This document shows, piece after piece, positions 11,698-46,593 of a stretch of DNA of 64,000 bases. The first letter of the stretch is position 1. Every line of letters begins with the position of its first letter. The stretch comes from a virus. A model generated the notes under the pieces. That model did no database searches and had not been told where the DNA came from. It saw only the letters and a list, made by a program, of their open reading frames with translations. The DNA is taken from positions 60,323-124,322 of the IMG/VR virus record IMGVR_UViG_3300035698_018475; one strand, given 5' to 3'. The position numbers were made by a program, and so were the translations under genes.

Positions 11698-11712
11698 GTG
11701 AGGAACTAAACA

Positions 11713-12861: not shown

Positions 12862-12863
12862 GT

Positions 12864-14037: not shown

Positions 14038-14679
14038 GTGGGTGGAGCCAAAGTATTTGTAATCGGGGGTGGTCCTTCTTTAGAGCAGTTTGATCTATCT
14101 CTCCTGGAGCAGGAAGATACTATCTGTGTGAACCAGGCAGTATTTGATGTTCCTAACCCCACTTACCTTATAACCTGTGATTATACTTTCCTGCATAAGG
14201 TAGGGAGACAAAAAGTAGCTAATTCCCCTGCTAGGAAGATATTTGTAGCTCAGTTTATAGGTGATACTTTACAAGATATTGATTCTCGTATAGTGGACAC
14301 CCAGCACAATATTGTTTATGATCTATCACTTTTTGATCAGATTATAAGAGCATATACCAGATCTGGTTTGGGCCTTACCTTTAATGATTTTCGGAGTGGT
14401 GGTAATAGTGGCTATTGTGGTCTGCAATTGGCAGTACTTCTGGGTTATAGGGAAATAAGACTCCTGGGGTTCGATCTGGGTGTAAGAGGTAGGAGAACTC
14501 ATTATCATAATGTTTATAGATCTAGTCCTGAAAAATTTCAGAAAAAACTTGATGCTTATTTGAAAGAGTTTATAATTGGGATCGAACAGTTGCGGAAGGA
14601 GATGCCAGATAGAGAAGTATATTCCTCCAGTCCTTTTAGCAGATTGAATGATTATATCCCCATGAAGGAGGGCGTATAG
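14038..14679 (+). CDS. Maf/DUF115-like (MptE-like fold) putative glycosyltransferase
   Basis: VIGGGPSL, GGNSG, LLGFD motifs. Confidence 0.65.
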   Translation: MGGAKVFVIGGGPSLEQFDLSLLEQEDTICVNQAVFDVPNPTYLITCDYTFLHKVGRQKVANSPARKIFVAQFIGDTLQDIDSRIVDTQHNIVYDLSLFDQIIRAYTRSGLGLTFNDFRSGGNSGYCGLQLAVLLGYREIRLLGFDLGVRGRRTHYHNVYRSSPEKFQKKLDAYLKEFIIGIEQLRKEMPDREVYSSSPFSRLNDYIPMKEGV

Positions 14680-14691
14680 TGTTATTTAGAC

Positions 14692-14703
14692 CTCCCAGGA
14701 TCT
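14692..14703 (+). repeat. Dispersed 12-bp motif CTCCCAGGATCT, copy 1 (others at 38838-38849 on + and 59297-59308 on -)
   Basis: Three exact intergenic copies. Confidence 0.8.
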
Positions 14704-14720
14704 CCCCTAAGAGGGGATTT
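14703..14720 (+). terminator. Possible intrinsic terminator
   Basis: TCCCCT-AAG-AGGGGA hairpin followed by a short TTT. Confidence 0.35.
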
Positions 14721-14772
14721 CCCCGATTATGGAGTGCAACCCATGTATTTGCTATTATGAAGGGAATGGCTT

Positions 14773-14852
14773 ATAACTCCTTATGTTATAAGGGTTTAGA
14801 GATTGTTTTTATTATATGTTCCATAACTCGTTATTTTATAAAGGGTTAGAGA
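14773..14852 (+). repeat. Two copies of a 30-bp imperfect palindrome (ATAACTCCTTATnTTATAAGGGTTTAGAGA)
   Basis: 14773-14802 and 14823-14852; same family at 50953-50982 and 51041-51070. Confidence 0.75.
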
Positions 14853-14904
14853 AACTTTTTGATACCAAGGATTCTACTTCTGTATTGGAGTATATTATAT
14901 ACGT

Positions 14905-15585
14905 ATGGATAGTATTACCATAGTTATACCAACAAGGAATAGATATGAGAAGTTGATCAAAACTTTAGAGTCTATTCCCGATCTTTCTTATGTGAAAATC
15001 ATTGTAATTTGTGATGGTGAGGATGAGACAAGAAGATTATTGGAAAAAGAGTACATAAGATTTGCGAGAAATATGGACGTTTGGGATTTTGCTATTCAGG
15101 CAGGTGCAGTACGTTGTAGGAATCATGTTATACAACGTATAAGTGATGGAGTATTATATGCAACTGATGATATAACATTCCAGGAGGGAGCAATAGAATC
15201 TGCTTTTCACACTTTTAATAAGAACTTCCCCGATGATGATGGAGTAGTGGGATTTGTACAAATTCCAGGTTCTTTTGATCCAACAGGAGTGGCCCTAGTG
15301 GGTCAAAAGTTTCTCCACAGATACCCGGAGAAAAAGTTGTTCTTCCCTGGATATTTTCATTTTAGTTCTCAAGAAGTTCATAGATTATGCGAAAGAATTG
15401 AATATGTTCATCATGGTATAACTACTTTTGTTCAGGATAAGAATGCGGTGGTGGAGCACCTTCATCCTGGTAAGTTCAAGGATCAGATGGATCAAACTCA
15501 TTTAGATGCAAGGATCTTCCGAAGTAGAGATCTTGAATTGTCCAGAAGAAGGAAAAAGGATGCATTAGTTTGGGGTAATGTTTAA
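14905..15585 (+). CDS. GT-A fold (GT2-like) glycosyltransferase
   Basis: IVIPTRNR, ICDG, YATDD motifs. Confidence 0.8.
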   Translation: MDSITIVIPTRNRYEKLIKTLESIPDLSYVKIIVICDGEDETRRLLEKEYIRFARNMDVWDFAIQAGAVRCRNHVIQRISDGVLYATDDITFQEGAIESAFHTFNKNFPDDDGVVGFVQIPGSFDPTGVALVGQKFLHRYPEKKLFFPGYFHFSSQEVHRLCERIEYVHHGITTFVQDKNAVVEHLHPGKFKDQMDQTHLDARIFRSRDLELSRRRKKDALVWGNV

Positions 15586-15597
15586 GGAGTTTTAGTA

Positions 15598-16482
15598 GTG
15601 GGAAAACCATGTTTCTTTGCTGATGTGGGAGAATTGGGTTGGAGTCTTGACCTTTCCGCTCATATGAGATATCGAAAGTGTTTGGGTGAAGAAAGTCATG
15701 TTATGACTTACCCAGAGAGGTTCTGCCTATATGAGGGTCTTTGTGGATATTCACAAGTACCTGATTCTTTCTACTCAAATTTTAGTGAGTTGTTTCCAGA
15801 TGGCTTTGGTTTTTATGACGAGTTTGGTAGAAGAGTAAAGTTATGGGATTACTTCTCTAAATTAGTACCAGAGGGTTTTGAGATGTATCCTGGTATGAGG
15901 TTTAAGTGTGATAAGTTTTGGGTAGGGAGTTGTATATATCAATCTTATCCAGTTAAGAATCAAATAGAAGGTAAGTATATTCTGGTCTTTCCAAGGTATA
16001 GGAAGGAAGCACCTTATAATAGGCGTAATTTATCACAACAATTTTATGTAGATTTAGTGAGAGAATTATGCAGAACTTTTTCTAATACGAGAATTATTAT
16101 GGTAGGGGATAGTAGATCTTCCTATTCCTTAGGATTAGTTGGTATATGCCATAATTATGTTGATTATACAAGTGTTCGACCAGATCTGCAGAAGATGATA
16201 GATCTTTGTGGATCTGCAGTTGCAGCTATTGGTGGACAATCAGCTTTACCAAAACTATCATTGCTTCAGAAAGTCCCAACTTTTATGATAGGTCATGAAC
16301 GGGAAAGACATATAAAGGAACAAAATTGGACGAATACCGAGGTTGGTTTTTATGAAGTGGAGGAAGATGGTTATTCTGATCTTACTTTAGACAGTCATTT
16401 GTTCCATCCTGGAGTGGATCAGACTATAAGTTGTGGGGAATCTATCATCTCTTTTGTGAGGAGTTGTTTATGTCCATCTTAG
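15598..16482 (+). CDS. GT-B fold (GT9/heptosyltransferase-like) glycosyltransferase
   Basis: C-terminal ILVFPR...IIMVGD...AAIGGQSALPKLSLLQKVPT resembles the GT9 C-domain. Confidence 0.55.
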   Translation: MGKPCFFADVGELGWSLDLSAHMRYRKCLGEESHVMTYPERFCLYEGLCGYSQVPDSFYSNFSELFPDGFGFYDEFGRRVKLWDYFSKLVPEGFEMYPGMRFKCDKFWVGSCIYQSYPVKNQIEGKYILVFPRYRKEAPYNRRNLSQQFYVDLVRELCRTFSNTRIIMVGDSRSSYSLGLVGICHNYVDYTSVRPDLQKMIDLCGSAVAAIGGQSALPKLSLLQKVPTFMIGHERERHIKEQNWTNTEVGFYEVEEDGYSDLTLDSHLFHPGVDQTISCGESIISFVRSCLCPS

Positions 16483-17285
16483 GGGTATGTATTGTTACTT
16501 GTGATAGACCAAATCATCTTGAGAGTTGTATTAAGTCTATACGTAAAGGTAATTATCCTTGTAAAATTGTTGTAGTGGATAATGGGGATGTGAAGAAGGA
16601 GCAAACTTATCGTATTGTTGAAGAACTCTGTTGTACTTATCTGGAAGGGAGAAATGGAAATTCCCCTGAAGGACAGAATATAGGTTTCAATTACTTACAA
16701 ACAAATGTTGATTTTATACTTAAGTCCGATGATGATATTGAGTACAGTGGAGACTATATCAATAAGTTAATGGAACATATTTTGTTTGATCAGGGTATAT
16801 GTGCTGTGGGAGGGACTTGTTACTCAAGGCACAGGAAAGAGCGGGTGGAACTTAAAAATGGGAAGTGGTTTTGTGGGGATAAAGATGTATCTTCCCGGTT
16901 TATGTTATGGAGGGTGAGGCGGCCTCCAAATCTGGTAGATATGAGGTTCTTACATGGTGGATTTATTTATAGAGTAAAAGATGCTCTGACTTTGAGAAAA
17001 CATACCCAAAAGGTAAGGGGAGAAGGACCTTTTGGAGACTACTTTTCCAGGGTGGCTTATAGGGAGGAAACTGAATTTAGTTTTTTACTAAGAGAAATGA
17101 CTGGACAAAGATTAGTGTTAGATACTTCTGCAGAATCTTTCCACTACTATGCCAAAGGTGGAATAAGAAGATTTGATGTTAAGGCCTGTTCAAGATCAGA
17201 CGAGAAAAATATGATGAATGTTTTTGAGAGGTTAGGTAAAGTCCCAACCATATTACCACCTTTTATTGGAGTTCTAGATGAATAG
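16470..17285 (+). CDS. GT2-like glycosyltransferase
   Basis: VCIVTCDRP, VVVDNG, KSDDD, REET motifs; GAGGAG RBS before ATG 16470. Confidence 0.8.
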   Translation: MSILGVCIVTCDRPNHLESCIKSIRKGNYPCKIVVVDNGDVKKEQTYRIVEELCCTYLEGRNGNSPEGQNIGFNYLQTNVDFILKSDDDIEYSGDYINKLMEHILFDQGICAVGGTCYSRHRKERVELKNGKWFCGDKDVSSRFMLWRVRRPPNLVDMRFLHGGFIYRVKDALTLRKHTQKVRGEGPFGDYFSRVAYREETEFSFLLREMTGQRLVLDTSAESFHYYAKGGIRRFDVKACSRSDEKNMMNVFERLGKVPTILPPFIGVLDE

Positions 17286-18207
17286 AACAGTAATAGTTAG
17301 TTACGGGATTTACCCGGATAATAAAGGTGGAGCTTGTTTGTACAATCATTATCTACAAAGGATGTTCCCAGATATTAAGATATATGGATGGAATAATTTT
17401 ATTCTTAGTACGAAATATCCGGATGTTTCAGAAGTGGAAAAGGCAGCTCTTTTGAATGCTTTTTTGTGTGCTAAAGGGTATATCAGAGAAGGAGATACAA
17501 TTCTGGGAGACGGTATCTGGGGGAATTTTGGTTTAGATCTTAATAAGTATAATTTAATAAGTGTATGTCACGGGCCATGGAGTTCTGTTTGTTCCCCCAG
17601 TGATCCCAGGATAGAAAAGCAAAGATTTGGTTATATCCGATCCAAAAGAGTTATAGCTGTATCTTCCAGTGCTGTGCAGGAATGTAAAGAATCTTATGGA
17701 GTAAAAGCTCATGAGATTTTGACTGGGTTGGATACTGATTTTTGGAAACCTATTTGTGGCAAGGAGAGGAACACTGTTATCTGGGAGGCCGGGAAGTGGA
17801 ACAGTCTGAATACTTTAAGAGATGAGTGTCAAGCAAGACTAAGAGAGTTTTCTCATGTTGAAATAAGAACTTTTGATGATAAAGAAGTTCGAGAACTTTA
17901 TAGTACTGGATTTGTATATGTTCATCTTACCAAGTGGGAAGCAAATAGTTTTGCTATCTTAAAAGCACTGTCTTGTGATAGACCAGTGATTGGAAGTAAT
18001 ACTGGTTTACTGTTGTGTAAGAGTATTATGGGGAAGAACAAGTTGGGAATTCCAGTTTCTTCACCTGTGCAGAATGTAGTATTAGCTATAGAGAAGATAC
18101 ATCAGTTACAAGATACATACCATCCAAGAGATTGGATTCTTCGTAATTGTACCTTAGAGAAGTTCAAAGAGCAATGGTTACCCATACTAGACCAAGACGT
18201 GCAGTAA
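17278..18207 (+). CDS. GT4-like (GT-B) glycosyltransferase
   Basis: WEANSFAILKALSCDRPVIGSNTG resembles the GT4 signature. Confidence 0.7.
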   Translation: MNRTVIVSYGIYPDNKGGACLYNHYLQRMFPDIKIYGWNNFILSTKYPDVSEVEKAALLNAFLCAKGYIREGDTILGDGIWGNFGLDLNKYNLISVCHGPWSSVCSPSDPRIEKQRFGYIRSKRVIAVSSSAVQECKESYGVKAHEILTGLDTDFWKPICGKERNTVIWEAGKWNSLNTLRDECQARLREFSHVEIRTFDDKEVRELYSTGFVYVHLTKWEANSFAILKALSCDRPVIGSNTGLLLCKSIMGKNKLGIPVSSPVQNVVLAIEKIHQLQDTYHPRDWILRNCTLEKFKEQWLPILDQDVQ

Positions 18208-18974
18208 GAAGAAAGCAGAGAAGATCTGTTAAGAACCTCTGTTCTACCAGATCCAGATCTTCACTACTCCAGGATATGTCCAAAGTAGGAATAGGTATTT
18301 GTACTTATAACAGATTAGGACCATTGGTCAAACTGATAGATATGGTTCAATCTACCACTAAGGCCAGATTGGTTGTGGCAGATGATGGTAGTCAGGATGG
18401 GACTTCTGTTTTTCTGGGAGCCAGAAATATAGAGCACGTTACTGGGGAGAACCTGGGAGTTGCAGGTAATAAAAATAGGTTGTTCCAAGCATTGAAGAAT
18501 CACGATTTCATTTTTATATTGGAAGATGATGTTACAATTAAAATGAAAGGTTGGATAGAACCATATCTGGAGGCTCATCAAAAGACTGGTATTCATCATT
18601 TTATATTCTGTCCACCAAGAAAATATGGATCTACTGGTCAAGTTTCAGAGATAAATAATGTGCGTATAGATCATCCTAGTCAAGATGGAGGGGTATTCAG
18701 TTTTTATACTAAGCAAGTGATTGAAACTTGTGGTGGAATGGATCCTAGGTTTGTAGGTTATAGTTTTGAACATTGTGATTTCACTGAGAGAATCCACCGT
18801 GCGGGGCTTTCGGGAAGTTATGTACATAATCATCTTCCGGAGAGTGAGAGGTATATAAATTTTAATAAACTGCCTTCCACTCTGGATAAGGGGAAGAAGA
18901 AGGAGTTCCAGGATCATAACCTTGGTCTTTGGATGGACAATAGGAATAGAGGAGTAGTGAAGACCTTACTTTAA
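18174..18974 (+). CDS. GT2-like glycosyltransferase with Arg-rich N-terminal extension (alternative start ATG 18276)
   Basis: IGICTYNR, VADDGS, ILEDD, MDPRF..Y.FEHCD motifs. Confidence 0.8.
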   Translation: MVTHTRPRRAVRRKQRRSVKNLCSTRSRSSLLQDMSKVGIGICTYNRLGPLVKLIDMVQSTTKARLVVADDGSQDGTSVFLGARNIEHVTGENLGVAGNKNRLFQALKNHDFIFILEDDVTIKMKGWIEPYLEAHQKTGIHHFIFCPPRKYGSTGQVSEINNVRIDHPSQDGGVFSFYTKQVIETCGGMDPRFVGYSFEHCDFTERIHRAGLSGSYVHNHLPESERYINFNKLPSTLDKGKKKEFQDHNLGLWMDNRNRGVVKTLL

Positions 18975-18989
18975 GATGGGAGAACCAAT

Positions 18990-19283
18990 ATGTGGGAAAA
19001 GATTTGGGATACCTTAGAAGAGTTTAAGAAGGTAGTATGGTTACTATATGTGATATCTTTTGTATCTGTAATGATATTTGCATTTAAGTGTGATGGTTAT
19101 TTGCCTCTTGGTATTGTGGTATTTCTTGGTGGTTTAATATTTTGTCTTTTATTTTCTTGCCATATACTATCAGGTGATTTAGGTTATGAGGAATTCTGTA
19201 TAAAATTGGTATTATTATTTCTTTGTGCAATTGCTACTGCGGTCATTGCAGTGGTACTCGCAAGTAAGGGTAATGGGAGTTAA
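18990..19283 (+). CDS. Small membrane protein (about 3 TM segments)
   Basis: Three hydrophobic stretches in 97 aa. Confidence 0.6.
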   Translation: MWEKIWDTLEEFKKVVWLLYVISFVSVMIFAFKCDGYLPLGIVVFLGGLIFCLLFSCHILSGDLGYEEFCIKLVLLFLCAIATAVIAVVLASKGNGS

Positions 19284-19285
19284 AT

Positions 19286-20287
19286 ATGAAAGTACTTATA
19301 ACAGGAATAACCGGGTTTGTAGGAAGTCACTTGTTGGACTACCTTCTAACTATGCCATATATGGAGATTCATGGTTTTAGCCGTTGGAGGTCTCCTTTAG
19401 ACAATATCTGGCATTGTAAAGATCAGATAATGTGTAACCTTCATATGGGGGACTTACTGGATATTTGTTCTATAGAGAAGTGTATTGAGGAGGTAAAACC
19501 AGATATCATATTTCATCTGGCTGCACAGTCTTATGTTCCCTACAGTTTCACAGCACCAATATCCACCATGGAAGTTAATAGTGAGGGAACTTTTAATCTT
19601 CTTGAAGTGGTGAGACGTATTAGAGATAGATCAAATGGTAAATTTGATCCTGTGATTCATATATGTTCATCTTCTGAAGTATATGGACAGGTCAAAGAAG
19701 AAGATATTCCTATAACAGAGGACCAACTATTTAATCCTGCTTCTCCCTACGGAGTGTCCAAAGTGGCACAAGATATGTGGGCATTACAATTCTTTACTTC
19801 TTATGGGTTGAAAACTATGAGGACCAGGATGTTTACTCACACCGGTCCCAGGAGAGGTTCAGTATTTGTCTTATCTGATTTTGCTATGCAGTTGGTTCGT
19901 ATTGAAAAGCAATTACAAAAGAGAAAAGTTTATGTGGGTAATTTAGATAGCTTACGAACTTTTGCTGATGTGAGAGATGCAGTGAAGGCCTATTGGTTGT
20001 TAGTCACCAAGTGTCAGTATGGGGAAGCATATAATATAGGAGGAGAAACTACAATAACTGTAAGAGAGATGCTTATGTGGTTGATAGATGTATCTGGTCT
20101 TGTAAATATTCATATAGTAAAAGAACAAAAAAGACTCCGTCCCTCTGATGTTACTAATCAAGTTCCTTGTTCAGATAAGTTCAAAGAAGCGACTGGGTGG
20201 GAACCAGAAATTCCATTTGAAACAACTTTAATAGATACTCTTGACTATTGGAGAAAGTTATATGATGCAAAATCAGGTCCAGTGTGA
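19286..20287 (+). CDS. gmd: GDP-mannose 4,6-dehydratase family NDP-sugar dehydratase/reductase
   Basis: TGITGFVG, HLAAQSYV, SSSEVYG, YGVSK, GNLDSLRTF motifs. Confidence 0.8.
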   Translation: MKVLITGITGFVGSHLLDYLLTMPYMEIHGFSRWRSPLDNIWHCKDQIMCNLHMGDLLDICSIEKCIEEVKPDIIFHLAAQSYVPYSFTAPISTMEVNSEGTFNLLEVVRRIRDRSNGKFDPVIHICSSSEVYGQVKEEDIPITEDQLFNPASPYGVSKVAQDMWALQFFTSYGLKTMRTRMFTHTGPRRGSVFVLSDFAMQLVRIEKQLQKRKVYVGNLDSLRTFADVRDAVKAYWLLVTKCQYGEAYNIGGETTITVREMLMWLIDVSGLVNIHIVKEQKRLRPSDVTNQVPCSDKFKEATGWEPEIPFETTLIDTLDYWRKLYDAKSGPV

Positions 20288-21230
20288 TTTATACACGAAG
20301 ATGTTTCTTTGTCGGTATGTGGAAGAAGTTATCCAGAGGGAGTACTTTGATGATGAAATGAAAACCCCTATGCATATGTCGATGGGGAGTGAGCATATAG
20401 CTGCCGGGTTGTGTCAAGCTCTGGGAGATAGAGGGAGAGTGTTTGGTACTTACCGCTCTCATGCTTTGTACCTCGCTCGTACTGGAGATACTGATGGGTT
20501 CTTCGCTGAGATGTATGGTAAGCAAACTGGGTGCTGCAGGGGAAAAGCTGGGTCCATGCACTTAAATAATCCTAGGTTAGGTTTCATGGGAGCCTCGGCA
20601 ATTGTTGGTAGTATTATTCCAGTAGCAGTGGGGTATGCATATAGTAACTTAAAACAAGGTATAAATGACATCACTGCAGTTTGCTTCGGGGATGGTGCTA
20701 CAAACGAAGGTACTTTCTGGGAGAGTTTGAATCTTGCCTGTGTTAAGAAACTTCCAATTCTGTTTGTTTTGGAAGATAATGATTTAGCAGTTCATACTTC
20801 TAAATGTGAGAGAGATGGGTATGATTTAAGAGATGTAATTAAAGGATTTAACTGTGTATCTAATCAATCTAGCTGGACAGGAGTTGATAGAGTATATGAT
20901 ATTGTTTGTTCTTGTTTATCTGAGATGAAAGAAAAAGGTGAACCTGGATTTTTAGATTTTAAGTACTATCGTTATTTGGAGCATGTTGGGGTCAAAACCG
21001 ATTTTGATAAGGGGTATCGTTCAGAAAATGGGTATAAGAAATGGTTGGAGAGAGATCCACTTATGCTATGGAGAAAAAAATTACAGGAAGATTTTGGTTT
21101 TCACCCTGACCACTTATTAGCAATCGAACTAGAAGTTACAAATAAGGTGGAAGTGAGTTTACAAAAGGCAAAGGAAGCCCCTTTTAGTCCTGTACAAGAA
21201 CTTTATGCTGGAGTATATTATGACGAGTAA
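20262..21230 (+). CDS. TPP-dependent dehydrogenase E1 alpha-like subunit
   Basis: GKAGSMH and GDGATNEG...EDN TPP-binding motif. Confidence 0.85.
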   Translation: MMQNQVQCDLYTKMFLCRYVEEVIQREYFDDEMKTPMHMSMGSEHIAAGLCQALGDRGRVFGTYRSHALYLARTGDTDGFFAEMYGKQTGCCRGKAGSMHLNNPRLGFMGASAIVGSIIPVAVGYAYSNLKQGINDITAVCFGDGATNEGTFWESLNLACVKKLPILFVLEDNDLAVHTSKCERDGYDLRDVIKGFNCVSNQSSWTGVDRVYDIVCSCLSEMKEKGEPGFLDFKYYRYLEHVGVKTDFDKGYRSENGYKKWLERDPLMLWRKKLQEDFGFHPDHLLAIELEVTNKVEVSLQKAKEAPFSPVQELYAGVYYDE

Positions 21231-22269: not shown

Positions 22270-22284
22270 TTGAGGTGATTAGAG

Positions 22285-23705: not shown

Positions 23706-23717
23706 AAAGGTTTTATT

Positions 23718-25174: not shown

Positions 25175-25176
25175 AT

Positions 25177-25965: not shown

Positions 25966-25979
25966 TAAGGAGTAATACA

Positions 25980-27005: not shown

Positions 27006-27035
27006 AAAGTAATTGGAAGTAAGGAGTAAAATATA

Positions 27036-30367: not shown

Positions 30368-30368
30368 T

Positions 30369-31379
30369 ATGGGTTATATTAGAAGACATGTTAGGAGGAA
30401 TCGTCGTACGGCTGGTCGTGGTAGTAGTACCACCGCTCGTACTCATAAGTCTTCTGTGGAGTCATCAGTAAGTGTAAAGAAAGAAGAATCAGTTATTTTG
30501 GATAGTTATATGGGAGAAGCTTTTGTAAATAAAGAAGATATAAAAATGAGTTGTAAAAAACCAGTTATCAGTATTTATACACCAAGTATACGACCTTGGT
30601 TTTGGGCAAGGATGTATAATTCCCTACTTTCAAGTTCCATACCATTTGAAATTATTTTTGTTGGTCCTAAAAGATCTTGTTATAAAATACCACCAAACAT
30701 ACATCATATTCGTTCTAATGTCAAACCAGCTCAATGTGCTGAGATTGGTTTGCGAGCTTGTAAAGGTGAATATTGTATGTTTGCCCAGGATGATATAGTT
30801 TTTAGTAAGAACGCTTTAGATATTTTATATGAAACTGCAGTTTCAGAAGGTGATGATGTTGTAGTGTCTTGTATTCCTTTTGTTAATGGGAAGAGGTATA
30901 ATACTTCCTACTACAGATTTTTTCCGGTAGAAGATAAGAATAAAATTCATAAGAAAAATAGTCCTATTATTCCTCTTTGTGGTATATATAATCTAGATGT
31001 TGTACGAGAATTGGGTGGAGTAGATAGGAATTTTATCAGTTCTTTTTGGGACATTGATTTAGTTATGAGGTTCTATGAAGCTGGTGGAAGAGCAATTTTC
31101 TCTGAATCTGCAGGAGCCAATGAAATTATTATTTCCCCATTAGGGAGATTAGGATGTGAAGGATTAAAAGATCGAACTTTAATAGAGGCATTATGGACCT
31201 TGAAGCATAAAGAGTATAATGCTTTAAGTCATACTACTAGAGAGAGTATAGAGATTATACATTTTGATCCAAACATACATGTTGGAATTATTCTCAAGCA
31301 TAGGACTCATCCAGTCGGATCTTTTAGAGATCATAATCTTTTAACGGTTTCTCAAGGTCCAAAAGGTAGATGGGTATGA
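30369..31379 (+). CDS. GT-A-like paralog family member 7 with Arg-rich N-terminal extension (alternative start 30546)
   Basis: Same motifs; MGYIRRHVRRNRR leader. Confidence 0.7.
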   Translation: MGYIRRHVRRNRRTAGRGSSTTARTHKSSVESSVSVKKEESVILDSYMGEAFVNKEDIKMSCKKPVISIYTPSIRPWFWARMYNSLLSSSIPFEIIFVGPKRSCYKIPPNIHHIRSNVKPAQCAEIGLRACKGEYCMFAQDDIVFSKNALDILYETAVSEGDDVVVSCIPFVNGKRYNTSYYRFFPVEDKNKIHKKNSPIIPLCGIYNLDVVRELGGVDRNFISSFWDIDLVMRFYEAGGRAIFSESAGANEIIISPLGRLGCEGLKDRTLIEALWTLKHKEYNALSHTTRESIEIIHFDPNIHVGIILKHRTHPVGSFRDHNLLTVSQGPKGRWV

Positions 31380-32218
31380 AACCAGTTATTAGTATATACA
31401 CACCAAGTATTCACCCAGAGTTTTGGATGAATATGTACAATTCTTTACTGGGTAATTCTATCTCCTTCGAGTTGATATTTGTTGGTCCAATTTCTCCTGA
31501 TTACGATCTCCCTGCAAACATCCATCATATATATACTGAAGTCAAACCAGCTCAATGTGCAGAAATAGGTTTTAGAGCCTGTAAAGGTGAGTTCTGTATG
31601 TTTATAGCTGATGATATAACTTTTAGTGAAAATGCTTTAGGTATTTTATATGAAATCTCAGTTTCAGAAGGTGAAGATGTTGTAGTATCTTGTGTACCAT
31701 CTGTAAATGGTACACTTATTGATACTTCTTACTACAGATTCTTCCCAATAGGACCAGAATCGGTTACTCGCAAAAAAGATAGTCCCATAACTCCTTTAGG
31801 AGGATTATATAGGAAGGATACCATAAAAGAGTTAGGAGGAATTGATAAGAACTTTGTCTCTGTTATTTGGGATTTTGATATAGTTATGAGATTTTATGAA
31901 CAGGGTGGAAGAGCAATGTTTTGTCCTCAAGCGATTGCTGATGAGACTGTCGTATGTGAGAGAAGTAGACTAATTGCCGAAGCAGCAGTAGATCGTACTT
32001 TACTGAACCATTTATGGTTGATCAATTATCACGATTATATGAGTATGAGCGAAGAGCAGATAAATGAACTTGAAGTTTGTTACGTAGATGATTACCAGAT
32101 AGTGGATTCTATAGGTCATGCGGGAGTTATTCTCAAACATAGAACCCGTCCTGTTGAACCTTTTGAAGATAAAGATTTACTAACTATATCTCAAGGACCT
32201 AAAGGAAGATGGGTATGA
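31370..32218 (+). CDS. GT-A-like paralog family member 8
   Basis: Same motifs; IADD. Confidence 0.7.
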   Translation: MGMKPVISIYTPSIHPEFWMNMYNSLLGNSISFELIFVGPISPDYDLPANIHHIYTEVKPAQCAEIGFRACKGEFCMFIADDITFSENALGILYEISVSEGEDVVVSCVPSVNGTLIDTSYYRFFPIGPESVTRKKDSPITPLGGLYRKDTIKELGGIDKNFVSVIWDFDIVMRFYEQGGRAMFCPQAIADETVVCERSRLIAEAAVDRTLLNHLWLINYHDYMSMSEEQINELEVCYVDDYQIVDSIGHAGVILKHRTRPVEPFEDKDLLTISQGPKGRWV

Positions 32219-33051
32219 AACCTGTAATAAGTATATATGCGCCCAGTATTCACCCAGAGTTTTGGATGAATATGTACAATTCTTTACTGGGTAATTCTAT
32301 TTCGTTTGAGTTGATATTTGTTGGTCCAGCCCCTCCTGATTATACTTTGCCTCCAAATACCCATCATATTAACAGTCCTGTTAAGCCTGTACAGTGTGCA
32401 GAGATTGGTCTTAGGGCCTGTCAAGGCGAATTTTGTATGTTCATGGCTGATGATATTGTTTTCAGTGAGAAGGCTTTGGACATTTTATATGAGTTTAGTA
32501 TATCATATGGTGAAGATGTAGTTGTATCTTGTGTACCGTCCCTTAATGGTAGACTTATTGATACTTCTTATTATCGTTTCTTCCCGGTTGATAATACTGG
32601 TATTCCCATCCATAGGAGAGATAGTCCTATAACTCCCATAGGAGGATTGTATAGAAAAAGTACTATAATAGAATTGGGTGGAGTAGATAGGAATTTTATC
32701 AGTTCTTTTTGGGATGTTGATTTATCTATGAGGTTTTATGAAGCTGGTGGGAAAGCACTATTTTGTCCTGCGGCGGTTGCTGATGAGATTATTCTGACTG
32801 AAAGGGGAAGATTAGCTTTACTGGGAGCAACAGATCGTCTTTTACTGGAAGAATTATGGACCATGCTTTATGATGATTATATGGATATGAGTGAAGAAGA
32901 GAGAAGTAAAATTGAGGTTTGTCATGTTGATGAGCATTTATCAGTAGGAGTTATTCTCAAACATAGAACTCATCCAGTTGAACCTTTTGAGGATTATAAT
33001 CTAATGACTGTATCACAGGGTCCTAAGGGATTAGAATGTAGATGGCCATGA
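32209..33051 (+). CDS. GT-A-like paralog family member 9
   Basis: Same motifs; MADD. Confidence 0.7.
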   Translation: MGMKPVISIYAPSIHPEFWMNMYNSLLGNSISFELIFVGPAPPDYTLPPNTHHINSPVKPVQCAEIGLRACQGEFCMFMADDIVFSEKALDILYEFSISYGEDVVVSCVPSLNGRLIDTSYYRFFPVDNTGIPIHRRDSPITPIGGLYRKSTIIELGGVDRNFISSFWDVDLSMRFYEAGGKALFCPAAVADEIILTERGRLALLGATDRLLLEELWTMLYDDYMDMSEEERSKIEVCHVDEHLSVGVILKHRTHPVEPFEDYNLMTVSQGPKGLECRWP

Positions 33052-34469
33052 GAGTTCTTTTTGTTGTAGCACAATTAGATTTTGCCGATCATATAGCAGT
33101 GGCTTATCTGTCTGCAGTGGCGAAGCAATTAGAATGGGATACCTCTTTTTGTAACTTAGCAACTGATGATCTTAATTGGATGTTAGCTTATTTTGCTCCA
33201 GCAGTTGTGGCTTATTCAGCAAATATCATGGGATTTAGAAAGTTGGTAGAAGCACACGAACTTGTTGCTAAATTACGGGTCCAAACAGTTTCTATCATGG
33301 GTGGTCCTCATCCAACAGTATCTCCTGAGACTTTTCTTGAGAGTGGGATGGATGCTTATTGTATAGGAGAAGGAGAAGGTGCTTTCAAAGATTTTCTTAT
33401 AGCAGTAGAAAGTGGTCAACCCTTTTATGATATTCCAAATCTCATAACCAAATGTACTGCTCACCCTGGTTGGCAACAAAATGAAGTTCGTCCTACAATA
33501 AAAAATTTGGATTCCTTACCAATGCCAGATAGGGATCTAACTATTGCTAATTCTTTTCTTCGGGATGTACCTAAAAAGACTTTTTACGCAACTCGTGGTT
33601 GTCCTTTCCAATGTAATTACTGTTGCAATAATCACTATCATAAATTATACAAAGGGAAGGGACCATTGGTTAGAAGATTTTCAGTGGATCGTCTTATTGA
33701 TGAGATCCTAGATGTTAAGTCCAAATATAGAATGGACTTCGTCAAGTTCGGGGATGATCTTTTTGCTACAAAAGCAGATGAGTGGATGTATAAATTTGCC
33801 ATTGCTTATAGTACAGAAGTGAGTATCCCTTTTAATTGCTATCTGCGTTTTGATAGGGTGGATAAAGATCTGTTAAGGTTGTTGAAGGAAGCGGGTTGCT
33901 ATTCTGTTCACTTATCTGTTGATAGTACTTCTCAATATATTCGAGAAACTGTATTGAATAGGCAGATGAAGGACGTTAATATAGTTGGTACTTTGAAGAT
34001 GATACAAGATATGGGTCTGAGGAGTTGGGTGAATTTCATGCTTGCCCTTCCTGAATCTACCCTACAAAATGATTTAGATGCTATCAAAGTTTGTAGAGAA
34101 GCAAAAGTTACTTATGCATCCTATACTACTACTGATCCCATGAGAGGTACTAAATTGTTTGATTCGTGTGTAGAGAAGGGATATATAGATAAGGATTATG
34201 AAGGGGATATGACTAAGTTATGGGAGAGGTCTCCTTTATCTTGTTTCAGTAAGAAAGAGAAGAATATAAGATACAATATATATTTTCTCGGTTCTTTCAT
34301 TACTAAACTACCCCTATCACTATATAAGTTTGGGCTGTTTCTAATAAAACATGTTCCTCCAAATCCATTATTCAGATGGATTCATAATTGGTATTATCGT
34401 TACAGTATCACACATACAATCTTTCAATTACCGAAAGGAGAGATATGGAAACTGAAGAATCAAAGTTAG
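33042..34469 (+). CDS. Cobalamin-binding radical SAM enzyme (class B methyltransferase-like)
   Basis: GGPHPT...GEGE B12 domain; RGCPFQCNYC CxxxCxxC motif. Confidence 0.85.
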   Translation: MAMRVLFVVAQLDFADHIAVAYLSAVAKQLEWDTSFCNLATDDLNWMLAYFAPAVVAYSANIMGFRKLVEAHELVAKLRVQTVSIMGGPHPTVSPETFLESGMDAYCIGEGEGAFKDFLIAVESGQPFYDIPNLITKCTAHPGWQQNEVRPTIKNLDSLPMPDRDLTIANSFLRDVPKKTFYATRGCPFQCNYCCNNHYHKLYKGKGPLVRRFSVDRLIDEILDVKSKYRMDFVKFGDDLFATKADEWMYKFAIAYSTEVSIPFNCYLRFDRVDKDLLRLLKEAGCYSVHLSVDSTSQYIRETVLNRQMKDVNIVGTLKMIQDMGLRSWVNFMLALPESTLQNDLDAIKVCREAKVTYASYTTTDPMRGTKLFDSCVEKGYIDKDYEGDMTKLWERSPLSCFSKKEKNIRYNIYFLGSFITKLPLSLYKFGLFLIKHVPPNPLFRWIHNWYYRYSITHTIFQLPKGEIWKLKNQS

Positions 34470-34996
34470 TGGTACAGGGAACAAAATTACCCGGAGTCCT
34501 TCTATTTAAGAGAGAGGCGTTTGAAGACCATCGTGGGAGTTATGAACCATTGTGGAATCTACCGGTATATGAAGATATAATTCAAAAGATGTGTCATGTA
34601 AGACTATCTTTTAAGGAGGACGACATTGCAGTATCTACTAGAGGGGTTCTGCGTGGTTTACATGGGGATGATAGGACTTGGAAACTAGTAACTTGTTTGA
34701 AGGGGAAGTATTACATAATTGTTGCTTGTTATGATCAGGCATCTCCTAACTGTTTTGATTGGGAATCTTTTGTTCTATCAGATAGTAATAAGTTACAACT
34801 ATTGATTCCTCCTCATTATGGTCATGGTTATTGTGTTATGAGTGAGGAAGCTATTTTCCACTACAAGCAATCCTGTATTTACCAGGGTATGAGTGAGCAG
34901 TTTACAATAAGATATGATGATTCCAGATTTGGTTTTTGGTGGCCTATACAAAATCCTATTTTGTCCTTAAGAGATTCGAAAGGTGAAACAGTATGA
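34445..34996 (+). CDS. dTDP-4-dehydrorhamnose 3,5-epimerase (RmlC-like cupin)
   Basis: FEDHRG, STRGVLRGLH, LLIPPHYGHG, LSLRD. Confidence 0.85.
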   Translation: METEESKLVVQGTKLPGVLLFKREAFEDHRGSYEPLWNLPVYEDIIQKMCHVRLSFKEDDIAVSTRGVLRGLHGDDRTWKLVTCLKGKYYIIVACYDQASPNCFDWESFVLSDSNKLQLLIPPHYGHGYCVMSEEAIFHYKQSCIYQGMSEQFTIRYDDSRFGFWWPIQNPILSLRDSKGETV

Positions 34997-35958
34997 ACAA
35001 GTTTTATGAGGGAAAGAGAGTCCTAGTTACCGGAGCATCTGGATTGAGTGGATCGCATCTTATGTATTCCCTTCTAAAAGCAGGTGCTCACGTAAGAGTT
35101 GTTGAACATGTTAAACTTATTGAAGATACTGCTCCTAATCTAGAAATCTTCAAAGGTGGATTGTGCAATATAGATAGTTGTAAAGATGCTGTGAAAGACA
35201 TTGATTTTGTGTTCCACTGTGCTGCAGTAACTTCTGGTGCTATGGATATAGTTAATAATCCGGCTAAACATATAACTCCCAATCTTATTATGTGCTCCAG
35301 GATGTTGGAATGTGCTGCTGCAGTGGGGGTCAAACGCTTTTTGTTCATGAGTAGTTCCACAGTGTATCCTGATTGTACTGATGCAATGAGAGAACCAGAT
35401 GCTTGGACTGAGGATGTTCATCCCGCTTACCAGGCTGTGGGATGGATGAAGAGATATGTGGAAAAGTTGTGTGAGTTCTATCATGATAGAACTGATATGA
35501 AGGTCTGTATAGTCCGTCCTGCAAACATATATGGTCCGGGAGATGATTTCGATCTGGAGACTGCACATGTACTTCCTGCACTCATTCATAAAGTAGTAAG
35601 AGGGGATAATCCTTTGGAAGTTTGGGGCACTGGGGATGATATAAGAGAATTCATTTATGTGGGAGATATAGTACGGGGAATGATACTTGCTTTGGAAAAG
35701 TATTGTTGTGGGAAACCAATCAATCTAGGTTCGGAAGAAACTACTTCTATCAGAGAAATTGTTCGTTTCATAGTTTCTTTTTGCGAAACTAATACTAAAA
35801 TTGTATTTGATCCTTCCAAACCCAGTACTATACCAATAAGAAGATTGGATTCTTCTCTGGCAAAAGCGGTTCTGGGTTTTGAACCAATTACAAGTTTGCA
35901 TAATAATCTGATGCAAACTATTAACTGGTATAAAGAACATAAGGAGAGTCACGGATGA
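34993..35958 (+). CDS. GDP-L-fucose synthase-like extended SDR, copy 2
   Basis: TGASGLSG, RPANIYGPGDDF, HVLPALI, WGTGDDIREF. Confidence 0.8.
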   Translation: MNKFYEGKRVLVTGASGLSGSHLMYSLLKAGAHVRVVEHVKLIEDTAPNLEIFKGGLCNIDSCKDAVKDIDFVFHCAAVTSGAMDIVNNPAKHITPNLIMCSRMLECAAAVGVKRFLFMSSSTVYPDCTDAMREPDAWTEDVHPAYQAVGWMKRYVEKLCEFYHDRTDMKVCIVRPANIYGPGDDFDLETAHVLPALIHKVVRGDNPLEVWGTGDDIREFIYVGDIVRGMILALEKYCCGKPINLGSEETTSIREIVRFIVSFCETNTKIVFDPSKPSTIPIRRLDSSLAKAVLGFEPITSLHNNLMQTINWYKEHKESHG

Positions 35959-36419
35959 TAAGTAAAGAAAGACTATGGTTACCACATTTTGGAGAGTTAA
36001 TTGATAGGTTATGTATTCATCAACTAAAAGAAGTGAATATCCCGGAGCATAAAGATAGGTATTCTGTTGAGATGGTGCAGATAATGAATGATATTGATCT
36101 GCTTATCAAAGAGATGGATGTTCAAACTTCTGCAGAACTAATAAGAGCTATAATAGTTCTCGCCCAGATAAATACGCATATTTGGAATAATGAGAGTAAT
36201 GCAAGAAAAGGGGGAACCCAAGATCTAAAACTTCTTGAACTCACTCATGGGTTAAACGGCATACGAAATAGCACACAAAACTTTATCCTGGAACTTATAG
36301 GACAGTTGGATAGAAAAGATTACAAAACTGATTGTCTGGCAGCGGAATTCAAAGACTGGGAGATTAGTTTAGACCGATATGGAGAAGAGAGTACAAATGA
36401 AGATATCTCTGCTGGTTAA
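35955..36419 (+). CDS. Hypothetical helical protein within the sugar cluster
   Basis: ORF coupled to both neighbours; ELIDRL.I..LK motif. Confidence 0.5.
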   Translation: MISKERLWLPHFGELIDRLCIHQLKEVNIPEHKDRYSVEMVQIMNDIDLLIKEMDVQTSAELIRAIIVLAQINTHIWNNESNARKGGTQDLKLLELTHGLNGIRNSTQNFILELIGQLDRKDYKTDCLAAEFKDWEISLDRYGEESTNEDISAG

Positions 36420-37113
36420 TTCTCGAAAAAGATGTGAATCTCTAAAGCGTATGTGGGATTCAGCCTTAGGAACTGCTTCTTACCCTAAGAGGTTAGAGTT
36501 GATTCTTTATGTGGATGATGATGATGTTGATACTCAAATGTTCTACAGTTGTAATATAAGGGATGTGAAAACTAAACTTCTTACTGGTCCTAGGAAACCG
36601 ATTATAGCGGAGTGTACAAATCTTGCTTATCAGCATAGTAGTGGTGAAATAGTTATGCTATGTACTGATGATGTTATATTCCACACTCATGGATGGGATC
36701 GATTAGTGTTTGAAGCTTTCCTGGAGTATCCAGACAGAATAGTTATGGTTTATGGGGAGGATGATATTCAGCATGGTAGCATAGCTACTCTTCCATTTGT
36801 GCATCGGAATTGGGTGGATACTGTAGGTTACTTTATACCACCACACTTTGTGAATGAGTTTGGGGATATGTGGGTATCTGATGTGGCGAAGATGATTGGT
36901 AGGAAGAAGTACATTCCTCATATGAGAATACAACACTTGTCTCCCCATAAAGGGACCATGGAAGCCGATCAAACTTTTACCGAGAGAGCAGCTATGAGTG
37001 CTGCAGTAAGACCCTGGAAGAAGTGGATGGAGTATTATCACTCTCTTCTTCCTAAACGGAAGCAGGATGCTGAGAAGTTGCAAAGTTTTATATCAGGTTT
37101 TCCAAAGAGTTAA
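36397..37113 (+). CDS. GT2-like glycosyltransferase
   Basis: LLVNSRKR, YVDDDD, CTDD, GDMW motifs. Confidence 0.8.
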   Translation: MKISLLVNSRKRCESLKRMWDSALGTASYPKRLELILYVDDDDVDTQMFYSCNIRDVKTKLLTGPRKPIIAECTNLAYQHSSGEIVMLCTDDVIFHTHGWDRLVFEAFLEYPDRIVMVYGEDDIQHGSIATLPFVHRNWVDTVGYFIPPHFVNEFGDMWVSDVAKMIGRKKYIPHMRIQHLSPHKGTMEADQTFTERAAMSAAVRPWKKWMEYYHSLLPKRKQDAEKLQSFISGFPKS

Positions 37114-37116
37114 GTT

Positions 37117-38556
37117 ATGGGATATCTTACAACTCATGCAAAAAGAAACCACGCTTCTGTAACCAGAAGAAATAAGATTAGAACTAATCCTACCCATATA
37201 GACTCCCAGAGTAGTAAAGATATATCAGAGATACTTCATGCGGGAGATTGGGCGGGAAAGAGATGTTTTCTGTTAGGTGGGGGAGACAGTTTACGTGGTT
37301 TTGATTATACTTTCTTATCCGGAGAATTAACTATAGGAGTAAATAGGATTTTTGAAGTTTGGGATAGTACTATTAACTTTTCCATGGATATAGGTTTTTG
37401 TGAATGGTTGAATCATCATAAGACAAATCAAGAAGAGTTGGACAGGAGATTACAAAGGTGGAGAGAATTTACCGGGATAAGGTTATTCCTGGAATCCACT
37501 ACAAGAAATTATGGTCCAAATACTTATATAATCAAAAAAATGGCTGAGAGGGCAATAAGTCTTAGTCCCAAGAGGGGAATATACGGTGGGACGAATTCTG
37601 GTTTTGGTGCTCTTATGCTGGCAGTGGCTCTGGGAAGTAAAGAGATATATCTCCTTGGGTATGATATGAAAGTCCAAGGTGAATCTACTCATTGGCATGA
37701 GGGATATCCCGGTCAGTCTGCACAAAGAACCGCAAAAGTTTTAGGTAGATTTACCAAAATTTTTGAAGAGTTTAGTCCTTCTTTGGAGAGAATGGGTATA
37801 GAAGTCATTAACTTAAATCCAGATAGTGCACTAGATTGTTTTGTAAAACAAGATCTTACTTCTGTACTTACCACTAAAAGTCCTTCTTCTTCTCCTACTC
37901 ATAGTTTGACAGATACTATGGTACACCTAAGTAGTGGGGGTAATGCTAAATTCCCAGTTATAGTTTCTTTCTACACTAAAGATACCGGGTATCAGGAAGA
38001 AGCAAAGAGGTTGGCGGGTTCCCTTCGGGGACTAAACCTTGACTTTGAAATAGTGGCCATAAATGATAGAAGAAACTGGCAGGCAAATGTTCGGTATAAA
38101 CCAGTATTGATGAAGAAGATGCTAAAAAGACATCATCCAAGACCAATAGTATATGTGGATGCTGATGCTATTTTTGTACGTCATCCAGAATTGTTTCTAA
38201 ATTTAGAGACCGATCTGGCTATGCACAAAGTGAAGTGGAGTGAATATGGGAGGAATAAACCGGATGAACTTTTGGGTGGTACAATATACATGGCTAATAG
38301 TAGTCGAATAGATTCTATTCTGGATAAGTGGATACATGAGTGTGAGACTCAACCGATGTCGATATGGGATCAAAAGATACTGTATAAAATAGTGGGGGAG
38401 AATTTTTATAAGCTTCCTGCAGAATATTGTACTATATTTGATTCAATGGGAGTTAATGTACAAAATCCTGTTATATTGCATAATCAGGCAAGTAGAAGAC
38501 TAAGACATTCTCATAGGAGGATACGAAGGCCGGGAAGGAAAGTTCGTACCAGATAG
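37117..38556 (+). CDS. Fusion: Maf/DUF115-like domain plus DxD nucleotide-diphospho-sugar transferase domain
   Basis: LLGGGDSL, GGTNSG, LLGYDM then VSFYT, YVDADA, WDQ, HNQASR. Confidence 0.7.
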   Translation: MGYLTTHAKRNHASVTRRNKIRTNPTHIDSQSSKDISEILHAGDWAGKRCFLLGGGDSLRGFDYTFLSGELTIGVNRIFEVWDSTINFSMDIGFCEWLNHHKTNQEELDRRLQRWREFTGIRLFLESTTRNYGPNTYIIKKMAERAISLSPKRGIYGGTNSGFGALMLAVALGSKEIYLLGYDMKVQGESTHWHEGYPGQSAQRTAKVLGRFTKIFEEFSPSLERMGIEVINLNPDSALDCFVKQDLTSVLTTKSPSSSPTHSLTDTMVHLSSGGNAKFPVIVSFYTKDTGYQEEAKRLAGSLRGLNLDFEIVAINDRRNWQANVRYKPVLMKKMLKRHHPRPIVYVDADAIFVRHPELFLNLETDLAMHKVKWSEYGRNKPDELLGGTIYMANSSRIDSILDKWIHECETQPMSIWDQKILYKIVGENFYKLPAEYCTIFDSMGVNVQNPVILHNQASRRLRHSHRRIRRPGRKVRTR

Positions 38557-46432: not shown

Positions 46433-46445
46433 TGTCTTTTTCTCC

Positions 46446-46538
46446 TTACTTTTTGAGTTTTGAATTTATTATTAAGGTTACGTTGACTATAATACATCCT
46501 GCAAATAGTCCAATAATAGCACATCAAAAGTCGCTCAT
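46446..46538 (-). pseudogene. 30-codon membrane micro-gene with an internal TGA at codon 5
   Basis: AAAGGAG RBS, MSDF*CAIIGLFAGCIIVNVTLIINSKLKK, stop overlaps the next RBS. Confidence 0.55.
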
Positions 46539-46593
46539 CCTTTTCTCCTTTACTTAGTCTGAGGTTTTAGTATTAGTATTAGTCTTCTTCTTA

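Follow-up and report, generated by a model that had tools for sequence, protein, structure and literature searches.

The window analysed here, 64,000 nucleotides long, is the terminal 64 kb of a 124,322-bp virus record (IMG/VR record IMGVR_UViG_3300035698_018475, positions 60,323 to 124,322), and it carries at positions 14038-38556 an island of sugar genes directly behind the tail fibre genes. We find that this island is a phage-owned cytoplasmic glycan factory and that it is a real module, conserved in a lineage of ~125-kb contractile-tailed salt-lake phages. We put the probability that its glycan ends on virion proteins at about one half. Coordinates refer to the window unless they are marked as genome positions, genes are named by their first position, and the features are collected in Table 1. 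A preliminary description, made from the letters of the DNA alone, had proposed a phage glycan system at this place, and its claims are taken up where the evidence bears on them.

The island belongs to the phage and is maintained by selection

The record is a circular-complete assembly, its first 127 bases being repeated at its end (127-bp terminal overlap) with no N. According to the open reading frame (ORF) listing, the island consists of 29 ORFs, all on the + strand, and 26 of their 28 junctions overlap or are at most 15 nt wide, in agreement with the earlier account of about 29 co-oriented, tightly coupled genes. Wider gaps occur at two junctions only, of 225 nt behind 14679 and of 30 nt ahead of 27036. 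GC content is flat over the window (0.35-0.41). The gene order is portal, capsid, sheath, baseplate, fibres and island; gene 14038 begins 10 nt past the end of a fibre-like gene, and downstream of the island the opposite strand encodes helicases, DnaB and a DnaD-like loader. Therefore, the morphogenesis block ends with the island, and the replication block lies next to it.

Two relatives contain the same island at the same place: G001, a complete 126.6-kb phage with direct terminal repeats and a baseplate wedge that is 71% identical, and G002, a 56-kb fragment. Their island genes are syntenic and 45-72% identical. Missing from both is the 3.7-kb block 15598..19283, which holds a GT9-like, a GT2, a GT4-like and another GT2 glycosyltransferase (GT) together with a 97-aa protein of about three transmembrane (TM) segments, and the genes like 14905 and 19286 are adjacent there. 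The number of paralogous transferases also differs (2+5 in G001, 4+4 in G002). Consequently, the transferase set varies among close relatives, while the sugar pathway is fixed.

The non-synonymous divergence (dN) of orthologues is 0.20-0.31, like that of the baseplate wedge (0.23), and its ratio to synonymous divergence (dN/dS) is 0.18-0.24 for recent paralogs (0.23 for 31370 versus 32209); the island is under purifying selection. Identical short contigs from four salt-lake metagenome runs in four studies span parts of the tail genes and of the island at a similar depth of 2-5; these come from DNA-type metagenomes, and none bridges the 14027/14038 junction. A chimeric assembly with host DNA is ruled out by the terminal overlap, the synteny, the contig depth and the dN values, and the block is the phage's own rather than a bacterial locus free of selection. 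A megablast search of the island against GenBank phages gave no match.

A jumbo-phage fragment, G003, holds the whole sugar cassette with only two paralog transferases. Its dehydratase homologue lies in two pieces ~940 bp apart (L018:4495-6489), which could be due to an intron, a homing-endonuclease insertion or a broken gene.

A predicted route to a branched, methylated deoxyhexose

Genes were assigned by Pfam, NCBIfam and PHROG profile searches, and the NCBIfam scores of the sugar enzymes all lie below the curated cut-offs, so that exact substrates are inferred only. Each of the enzyme types proposed beforehand, a nucleoside-diphosphate (NDP)-sugar dehydratase, an epimerase, reductases, a thiamine-diphosphate-dependent pair and a B12 radical S-adenosylmethionine (SAM) enzyme, has its family match. 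The dehydratase 19286 appears Gmd-like by its best score (170 bits against TIGR01472 gmd, cut-off 415), with the LegB and RmlB models slightly lower, and the radical-SAM product of 33042 is probably a C-methyltransferase, as its family matches suggest. Among the ORFs scanned there was no E2 or E3 subunit of pyruvate dehydrogenase (PDH), no genome search having been aimed at these. Of the two methyltransferases named in the preliminary description, the FkbM enzyme (25962) stands, and the second (22285) has one weak match only; its product is 67% identical in G001 and 48% identical in the jumbo-phage fragment.

From these enzyme families we infer the following route. An NDP-hexose supplied by the host would be converted to a 4-keto-6-deoxy sugar by the 4,6-dehydratase and epimerised by the RmlC-like enzyme, after which the E1 alpha/beta pair would add a two-carbon branch from pyruvate. 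The branched sugar would then be reduced by the short-chain dehydrogenase/reductase (SDR) and the two fucose-synthase-like enzymes, and finally methylated on carbon by the B12 radical-SAM enzyme and on oxygen by FkbM. The whole genome contains no match to the nucleotidyltransferase family NTP_transferase, for which the control was positive; therefore the NDP-hexose must come from the host, and the island is not 'self-contained', as had been claimed.

The count of about 16 GT-like genes holds, as 15 GT-like proteins, including nine paralogs, and one GT9-like lead. The ~15 soluble transferases, among them two phage-specific clades of a small GT-A family, would build a heteroglycan. Beside them stands the 154-aa product of 35955, one of the best-conserved in the island (71-72% identical in G001 and G002, 60% in G003 and 37% in a Dehalococcoidia locus), whose nearest Atlas clusters are 72-100% viral (the top three 100%). 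Sequence searches of the PDB gave nothing significant for 37117, 35955, 15598 and 22285, the lone match of 22285 having E = 0.89.

Nine paralogs form two phage-only clades

Identity among the nine paralogs is 27-68%, and they agree throughout in 36 alignment columns; these contain the DD motif, which is invariant across 44 family sequences. The paralog model built from 44 members (predicted local distance difference test, pLDDT, 92) has a GT-A fold, and its top Foldseek matches are the WrtF fucosyltransferase and polypeptide GalNAc-transferases, at a template-modelling score of ~0.6 that is generic for this fold. Only two paralogs pass a Pfam cut-off, 23718 (PF13632, 42.4 bits) and 30333 (PF00535, 30.2 bits; this one has an N-terminal extension of ~75 aa), and three have no Pfam match at all. 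A PDB sequence search with the family found weak GT matches only, and an exhaustive profile search retrieved 431 representative clusters at E = 1e-30 among 1.84 billion. Judged by sequence, the family is a small, distinct subfamily without a Pfam model of its own.

Searching 50,697 GenBank phage records with a paralog (tblastn) returned no match. The maximum-likelihood tree places the phage paralogs in two well-supported phage-only clades (A and B in Table 1), with the bacterial copies outside; orthologues correspond one-to-one over three phages, and this phage has undergone a recent triplication.

Bacterial family members occur in metagenome-assembled genomes from a wide range of phyla, and in Omnitrophota, Methylophilaceae and Pelagibacter HIMB1412 they lie on contigs 0.9-1.3 Mb long. 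The same cassette accompanies the GT family on chromosomes of Omnitrophota, Pelagibacter, Methylophilaceae, Dehalococcoidia, Nealsonbacteria and others. Identity between bacterial and phage proteins reaches 58% for the dehydratase and 50% for the SDR, and is 60-61% for E1 beta, 59-62% for the fucose-synthase-like enzyme, 44-58% for the RmlC-like enzyme and 59-60% for the B12 radical-SAM enzyme. These loci hold exporters, namely an ABC-2/Wzt-like exporter of permease and ATPase (L023), fused ABC transporters (L030, L035) and Wzx fragments (L029). Therefore, the cassette is a surface-polysaccharide module in bacteria, of which the phage has the cytoplasmic half only. Relatives of 14038 and 37117 were not found within 10 kb of a paralog in 17 bacterial loci, and 37117 homologues had no match in five whole cassette-bearing bacterial genomes, a weak negative as it has no positive control.

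Maf-like transferases travel with virion genes

The first and last genes of the island, 14038 and 37117, encode Maf-like enzymes. In an AlphaFold2 (AF2) model of the 37117 product (pLDDT 87), residues 29-258 match the Magnetospirillum Maf structure 5mu5 (Z = 16.3, root-mean-square deviation (rmsd) 3.7, 198 residues), ahead of MptE kinase and sialyltransferases, whereas residues 278-464 match A64R, the transferase for the capsid glycan of the chlorovirus PBCV-1 (2p6w; Z = 17.6, rmsd 2.9, 179 residues), which is also the top match in Foldseek. Glycogenin, Skp1 galactosyltransferase, GlyE and UGGT are the next matches of this C-domain, and its DAD motif at 348-350 is invariant. The 14038 product is 30% identical to the N-domain of 37117, and both belong to phrog_4603; it has a GGGPS motif at residues 10-14, and 37117 has GGGDS. 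Against PF01973, 14038 scores 23.8 bits, under the cut-off of 34.6, and 37117 has no match at E = 0.01, while precomputed tables show PF01973 in some homologues. The Maf-like fold of the 37117 N-domain and its likeness to 14038 bear out, for two enzymes, the Maf-like type named before.

Relatives of 37117 are encoded by 242 stretches in IMG/VR, and we clustered the neighbours in 78 of them (loci L038-L115). A common order recurs in 34 of the 78: terminase (TerL), a portal-like gene, a 387-aa protein, head decoration (phrog_122), capsid (PF25209, 34.5 bits) and then the Maf-GT77 gene. A GT2 gene like 14905 stands alongside in 28 of the 78, and in many loci the Maf-GT77 gene is followed by sugar genes (LicD, radical SAM, Gmd, rhamnosyltransferase, DegT aminotransferase, CMP-sugar cytidylyltransferase, O-methyltransferases), behind which the adaptor and minor head genes stand. 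Taken with its variable sugar genes, the Maf-GT77 gene seems to be a phage module of its own, and a widespread one.

Cultured phages repeat the arrangement. The Maf-like gp126 of CcrColossus, a Caulobacter phage, begins right at the stop of gp125, a 1665-aa tail protein, and next in line are genes for a nucleotide-sugar transferase and a GT9. The CcrColossus GTs gp129 and gp131 have no detectable similarity to the island GTs; the Maf-like gene alone is shared. In Pseudomonas phage PAJU2 (AP009624.1 7780-8349), the Maf-like ORF010 comes after the head-tail adaptor and is labelled 'structural protein' in the record. Nothing speaks more strongly for a role of the Maf-like family at the particle than this recurrent place right behind a major virion gene.

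The acceptor of the glycan

We favour, at the even odds stated above, the virus particle itself as the acceptor, through its tail fibres or further virion proteins that are exposed. In favour are the likeness of the Maf-like enzymes to transferases of the protein-directed type, the lack of an exporter and of an integrase, the place among virion genes and the mycobacteriophage precedent. Chains would be begun or capped on protein by 14038 and 37117, in the cytoplasm, before assembly or in its course. The coat so formed may hide the particle surface or adjust it, and it would vary among relatives along with their transferases. More tentatively, we propose the full picture of a complete phage protein-glycosylation system, comparable to those of chloroviruses and mimiviruses, that would make a branched, C- and O-methylated 6-deoxyhexose which the host perhaps lacks and, with ~15 dedicated transferases, would place a strain-specific heteroglycan on fibres or capsid. 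The Maf-GT77 gene, found behind the capsid gene in dozens of unrelated phages, would then be the hallmark of a widespread phage machinery not described before.

Several observations weigh against a glycan on the particle. The nearest sequence relatives of the cassette and the paralogs are bacterial surface-polysaccharide genes. A poly-Ser/Thr acceptor tag, such as other candidate phages for virion glycosylation have, is present in no ORF of the genome, the maximum being 15 of 30 residues (11713-12861). At 11-14% identity, likeness of fold does not tell which acceptor 37117 uses, and both A64R domain 1 and sialyltransferases extend glycans, not proteins. In three other viral lineages (L007, L009, L010), the cluster of Maf-like and paralog genes, which also holds an aminotransferase and a methyltransferase, adjoins DNA polymerase, ribonucleotide reductase, exonuclease or primase-helicase rather than tail genes. 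Nearly all genes between genome positions 287 and 98,878 lie on one strand, with a single 61-aa ORF on the other, and the orientation shared with the tail genes therefore tells little on timing. Scans for sigma-70 promoters and terminators gave counts at or under the shuffled expectation, and the sub-cut-off NCBIfam matches leave the sugar route itself a prediction.

What the complete genome lacks bears on the alternatives. A hydropathy scan of every ORF of at least 50 aa in the 124-kb genome detected no polytopic membrane protein except the 97-aa ORF (18990-19283), which matches no GtrA, SMR or flippase family in Pfam even at E = 1. The Bac_transf initiating transferase (PF02397) is absent from the whole genome (control positive in 10 of 14 genomes), and no polytopic protein is a candidate for a WecA-type enzyme. 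As first described, then, there is no Wzx, Wzy, ABC exporter or lipid-carrier initiating transferase, here anywhere in the complete genome, and only one small membrane protein. With neither an initiating transferase nor an exporter, the phage alone cannot start a lipid-carrier chain or export one. A tyrosine integrase is likewise absent from the whole genome (control positive), and the phage is probably virulent; the features of gtrABC lysogenic conversion are missing, there being no GtrA match, no polytopic protein and no integrase in the genome.

The leading alternative, less likely but a serious one, is remodelling of the host envelope: phage enzymes would extend an undecaprenyl-linked primer of the host at the inner membrane face, and host ABC or Wzx proteins would export the product, changing the infected-cell surface, for instance against superinfection or against progeny sticking to debris. 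The preliminary description had taken the lack of TM segments in the GTs as a case against a lipid-linked acceptor. That argument fails: soluble GTs often act on lipid-linked acceptors, and the same cassette (51-62% identity) and GT family lie in exporter-bearing bacterial loci, which makes envelope remodelling through host exporters viable. Cyanophage 'LPS' (lipopolysaccharide) clusters have been interpreted in this way (PMC1079782, PMC12801897), the block particular to this phage contains the small 3-TM protein, and in other phages the cluster adjoins early-type genes. However, host machinery would have to provide the initiating transferase, flippase, exporter, polymerase and ligase that the complete genome does not contain, and a chain made by ~15 transferases must suit the specificity of the host exporter. 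The missing integrase, the separation of the phage paralogs from the bacterial ones in their own clades, and the finding of Maf-like genes in head and tail modules of many phages and in none of the bacterial cassette loci also count against it.

Improbable, too, is a different cytoplasmic or secreted product with which the phage would seize or disable its host, be it a glycolipid, a free oligosaccharide or a host protein that receives the glycan, for instance a receptor, flagellin or pilin. Bacterial Maf enzymes act on flagellin (the PDB 5mu5 family), and 35955 and 22285 are conserved proteins without a known role; against this, nothing points specifically to such a product, and the number and diversity of the transferases suit a surface polymer over a single host target.

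The preliminary description had named a cytoplasmic acceptor, virion proteins or phage DNA. The second of these, in which glycans on a modified genome base would block restriction, is most improbable: the DpdA-like gene at 62271-63422 speaks for an investment in base modification and the related clusters of L007, L009 and L010 lie beside replication genes, yet we know of no glycosylated deazaguanine, and no known DNA glycan comes near ~15 transferases with a branched, methylated deoxyhexose route. DNA glycosylation by phages is on record, with oligo-arabinosyl chains as one form (PMC13326640; bioRxiv 10.1101/2023.12.21.572611), but the routes in PMC13326640 all start from a hydroxyl or hydroxymethyl pyrimidine made by a thymidylate-synthase homologue, and no such homologue (PF00303) that could make 5-hydroxymethylcytosine, 5-hydroxymethyluracil or 5-hydroxycytosine was found in the whole genome (control positive in 10 of 14 genomes). 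For the route through a cytosine methyltransferase and a TET-like 5mYOX enzyme, a Tet/JBP search (PF12851) gave no match in the genome; its control was silent too, and the result is uninformative.

Features within and around the island

The three fibre candidates (10387-14027) are possible acceptors that lie outside the enzyme set. Their G001 orthologues are 72%, 60% and only 28% identical. The Ser/Thr-rich patch of ORF 11713-12861 is the sole one in the genome and is moderately conserved only. ORF 12864-14027, the least similar of the three (28% versus 60-72% for its neighbours), reads like a beta-propeller and probably forms the tip that binds the receptor; its divergence goes along with that of the transferase set.

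Table 1. Features of the island and of the structural genes upstream (window positions unless marked genome)
Feature	Position	Strand	Evidence or remark
Portal	genome 27.0 kb	same as island	upstream of island
Protease fusion	genome 42.8 kb	same as island	upstream of island
Major head protein	genome 45.9 kb (45882-47357)	same as island	upstream of island
Tail sheath	genome 58.7 kb	same as island	upstream of island
Baseplate hub	1949	same as island	upstream of island
Baseplate wedge	8087-9889	same as island	phrog_219
Three fibre or receptor-binding candidates (436, 382, 387 aa)	10387-14027	+	after baseplate wedge; no family matches
Maf/sialyltransferase-like, single domain, 213 aa	14038..14679	+	phrog_4603 5.6e-18; PF01973 weak
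Intergenic gap, 225 nt	14680..14904	+	repeated hairpin element and two ~30-nt direct repeats
GT2/GT-A glycosyltransferase	14905..15585	+	PF00535 24.5 bits, PF09258, phrog_14945
GT9-like	15598	+	language-model lead only
GT2-type	16431	+	Pfam/PHROG profiles
GT4/GT1-type	17278	+	weak, under Pfam cut-offs
GT2-type	18147	+	Pfam/PHROG profiles
97-aa protein, ~3 TM segments	18990..19283	+	hydropathy scan
NDP-hexose 4,6-dehydratase	19286..20287	+	PF16363 2.1e-72
PDH-E1-like alpha (20241) and beta (21205), thiamine-diphosphate-dependent	20241..22269	+	PF00676, PF02779, PF02780; NCBIfam E1 models sub-cut-off
Conserved 235-aa protein, possibly methyltransferase	22285..22992	+	sole match Erm-like, weak, E = 2.4e-4
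Paralog clade A, three tandem GT-A glycosyltransferases (22989, 23718, 24452)	22989..25174	+	phage-only clade, support 99/92
FabG-like SDR	25177 (block 25177..28022)	+	Pfam, NCBIfam
FkbM methyltransferase	25962	+	Pfam, NCBIfam
GDP-fucose-synthase-like SDR	27036	+	Pfam, NCBIfam
Paralog clade B, six tandem GT-A glycosyltransferases (28019, 28788, 29549, 30333, 31370, 32209)	28019..33051	+	phage-only clade, support 100/99
B12-binding radical-SAM enzyme	33042..34469	+	PF02310, PF04055; NCBIfam B12 radical-SAM methylases, all sub-cut-off
RmlC-like 3,5-epimerase	34388 (block 34388..35958)	+	Pfam, NCBIfam
Second GDP-fucose-synthase-like reductase	34993	+	Pfam, NCBIfam
154-aa protein, virus-dominated family	35955..36419	+	weak DUF4254 signal
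GT-A glycosyltransferase	36379..37113	+	phrog_14945 1.9e-36; PF00535 weak
Two-domain transferase: Maf-like N-domain (29-258), GT8/GT77-like GT-A C-domain (278-464), Ser/Thr-rich linker	37117..38556	+	AF2 model

The sole long gap of the island, which may be a transcript boundary with a promoter, contains two kinds of repeat. Direct repeats of ~30 nt (TAACTC.TTAT.TTATAA.GGGTT.AGAGA) at 14786-14802 and 14836-14852, upstream of 14905, are candidate phage promoters for the remaining island. A 35-nt element (CCTCCCAGGATCTCCCCTAAGAGGGGAT...) occurs on the + strand in three intergenic gaps, at 14692-14726, genome 23068 and genome 53474 (L117:8474), with a partial copy at 38838; one copy follows the Maf-like gene 14038, and another follows a 490-aa ORF (genome 51988-53460). 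It has a stem of up to 14 bp, yet folds no better than its shuffles, and may be a transcript-end or RNA-stability element.

Elsewhere, the 878-aa portal ORF (genome 27007-29643; L116:7-2643) matches portal families over residues 589-766 and HNH endonuclease families over residues 409-549; the latter stretch could be an inserted homing endonuclease or an intein-like element. Another HNH endonuclease is encoded at 54-812. The DpdA-like gene mentioned above encodes a homologue of tRNA-guanine transglycosylase (phrog_887, 9.8e-43) and would suit a 7-deazaguanine modification of the DNA.

Implications

If the glycan is on the particle, this would be the largest phage virion-glycosylation system and the first with a rare-sugar pathway of its own, and virion glycosylation would reach well past phages that infect Actinobacteria. 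The coat would then matter for the avoidance of debris, the evasion of recognition, host range and the immune view of therapeutic phages. The Maf-GT77 gene would be a simple marker for such phages, and Caulobacter phiCbK-like phages and Pseudomonas phage PAJU2 are cultured systems that make the idea directly testable. As an enzyme set, the island would provide a compact, soluble route to a two-carbon-branched, methylated deoxyhexose. If the host envelope were instead the target, virulent phages would be borrowing host exporters to repaint the cell surface, as was proposed for cyanophages in 2005.

Comparison with known systems

Locus types of bacteria offer the closest gene content. The bacterial ABC/Wzx polysaccharide loci share with the island the dehydratase, E1 alpha/beta pair, SDR, fucose-synthase-like, RmlC-like and B12 radical-SAM enzymes at 40-62% identity and the same GT-A family at 26-40% identity; unlike the island, they have exporters, no Maf-like gene was found in them, and their GT copies fall outside the phage clades. 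More generally, O-antigen and capsule loci combine NDP-sugar modification genes with serial glycosyltransferases, as the island does, whereas the initiating transferase, flippase or exporter, polymerase and ligase of such loci were not found in the phage genome.

The dehydratase and E1 alpha/beta pair without E2/E3, next to a ketoreductase, presumably recur in the pathways to two-carbon branched sugars with AviB1/AviB2 (avilamycin) and AlmDI/DII (aldgamycin). Both of these are actinomycete antibiotic pathways.

In fold and in a GGGPS-type motif, 14038 and the N-domain of 37117 agree with the Maf flagellin GTs (5mu5; DUF115/PF01973), from which the island enzymes differ in their sub-cut-off Pfam score, in the lack of a flagellin and in the fusion of 37117 to a GT-A domain. 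A nonulosonic acid route was not seen in this genome, synthase genes not having been searched for, and a CMP-sugar cytidylyltransferase is encoded by some other phages that have a Maf-like gene. For the C-domain of 37117, the structure that fits best, at the level of the fold (11-14% identity), is the A64R transferase domain of PBCV-1 (2p6w, 2p72). PBCV-1 encodes a glycan machinery that does not depend on the host and has sugar-nucleotide enzymes, deoxyhexoses and methylation of its own, and A64R extends an existing glycan and does not attach one to protein. Unlike the phage, PBCV-1 is a eukaryotic virus.

Mycobacteriophages are the nearest precedent for the proposed function. Glycans have been shown on mycobacteriophage capsid and tail-tube proteins, and for mycobacteriophages only (summary in PMC12619734). 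As proposed here, phages such as Che8, Corndog and Myrna (Freeman et al. 2023) are described in that summary as encoding soluble GTs that act in the cytoplasm, and their capsid and tail glycans are thought to shield the particle. In that account, the mycobacteriophage system has few GTs, no sugar-synthesis pathway and C-terminal tags as acceptors, whereas the island has ~15 GTs, a deoxy-sugar pathway and no tag; glycosylation was shown there by experiment, while the island is known here from its genes alone.

Similar scale is found in the cyanomyoviruses, which are likewise virulent contractile-tailed phages with no exporter reported (PMC1079782, PMC12801897). The 'LPS' genes of cyanophage P-SSM2 number 24 and form two clusters (PMC1079782); S-SCSM2R encodes 22 cell-wall proteins with 13 GTs among them, described as perhaps the largest number of any marine phage (PMC12801897). 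The scale of the island, first described as far beyond that of characterised phages, lies at the upper end of what is known and does not exceed it. The island differs from the cyanophage clusters in its route through the E1 pair and the B12 radical-SAM enzyme, its Maf-like enzymes, its place right behind the tail fibres and its nine-paralog family, which has no match among GenBank phages. What is new is a branched-sugar pathway of the phage's own, two phage-specific clades of an expanded GT family, and a Maf-GT77 enzyme that travels with virion genes.

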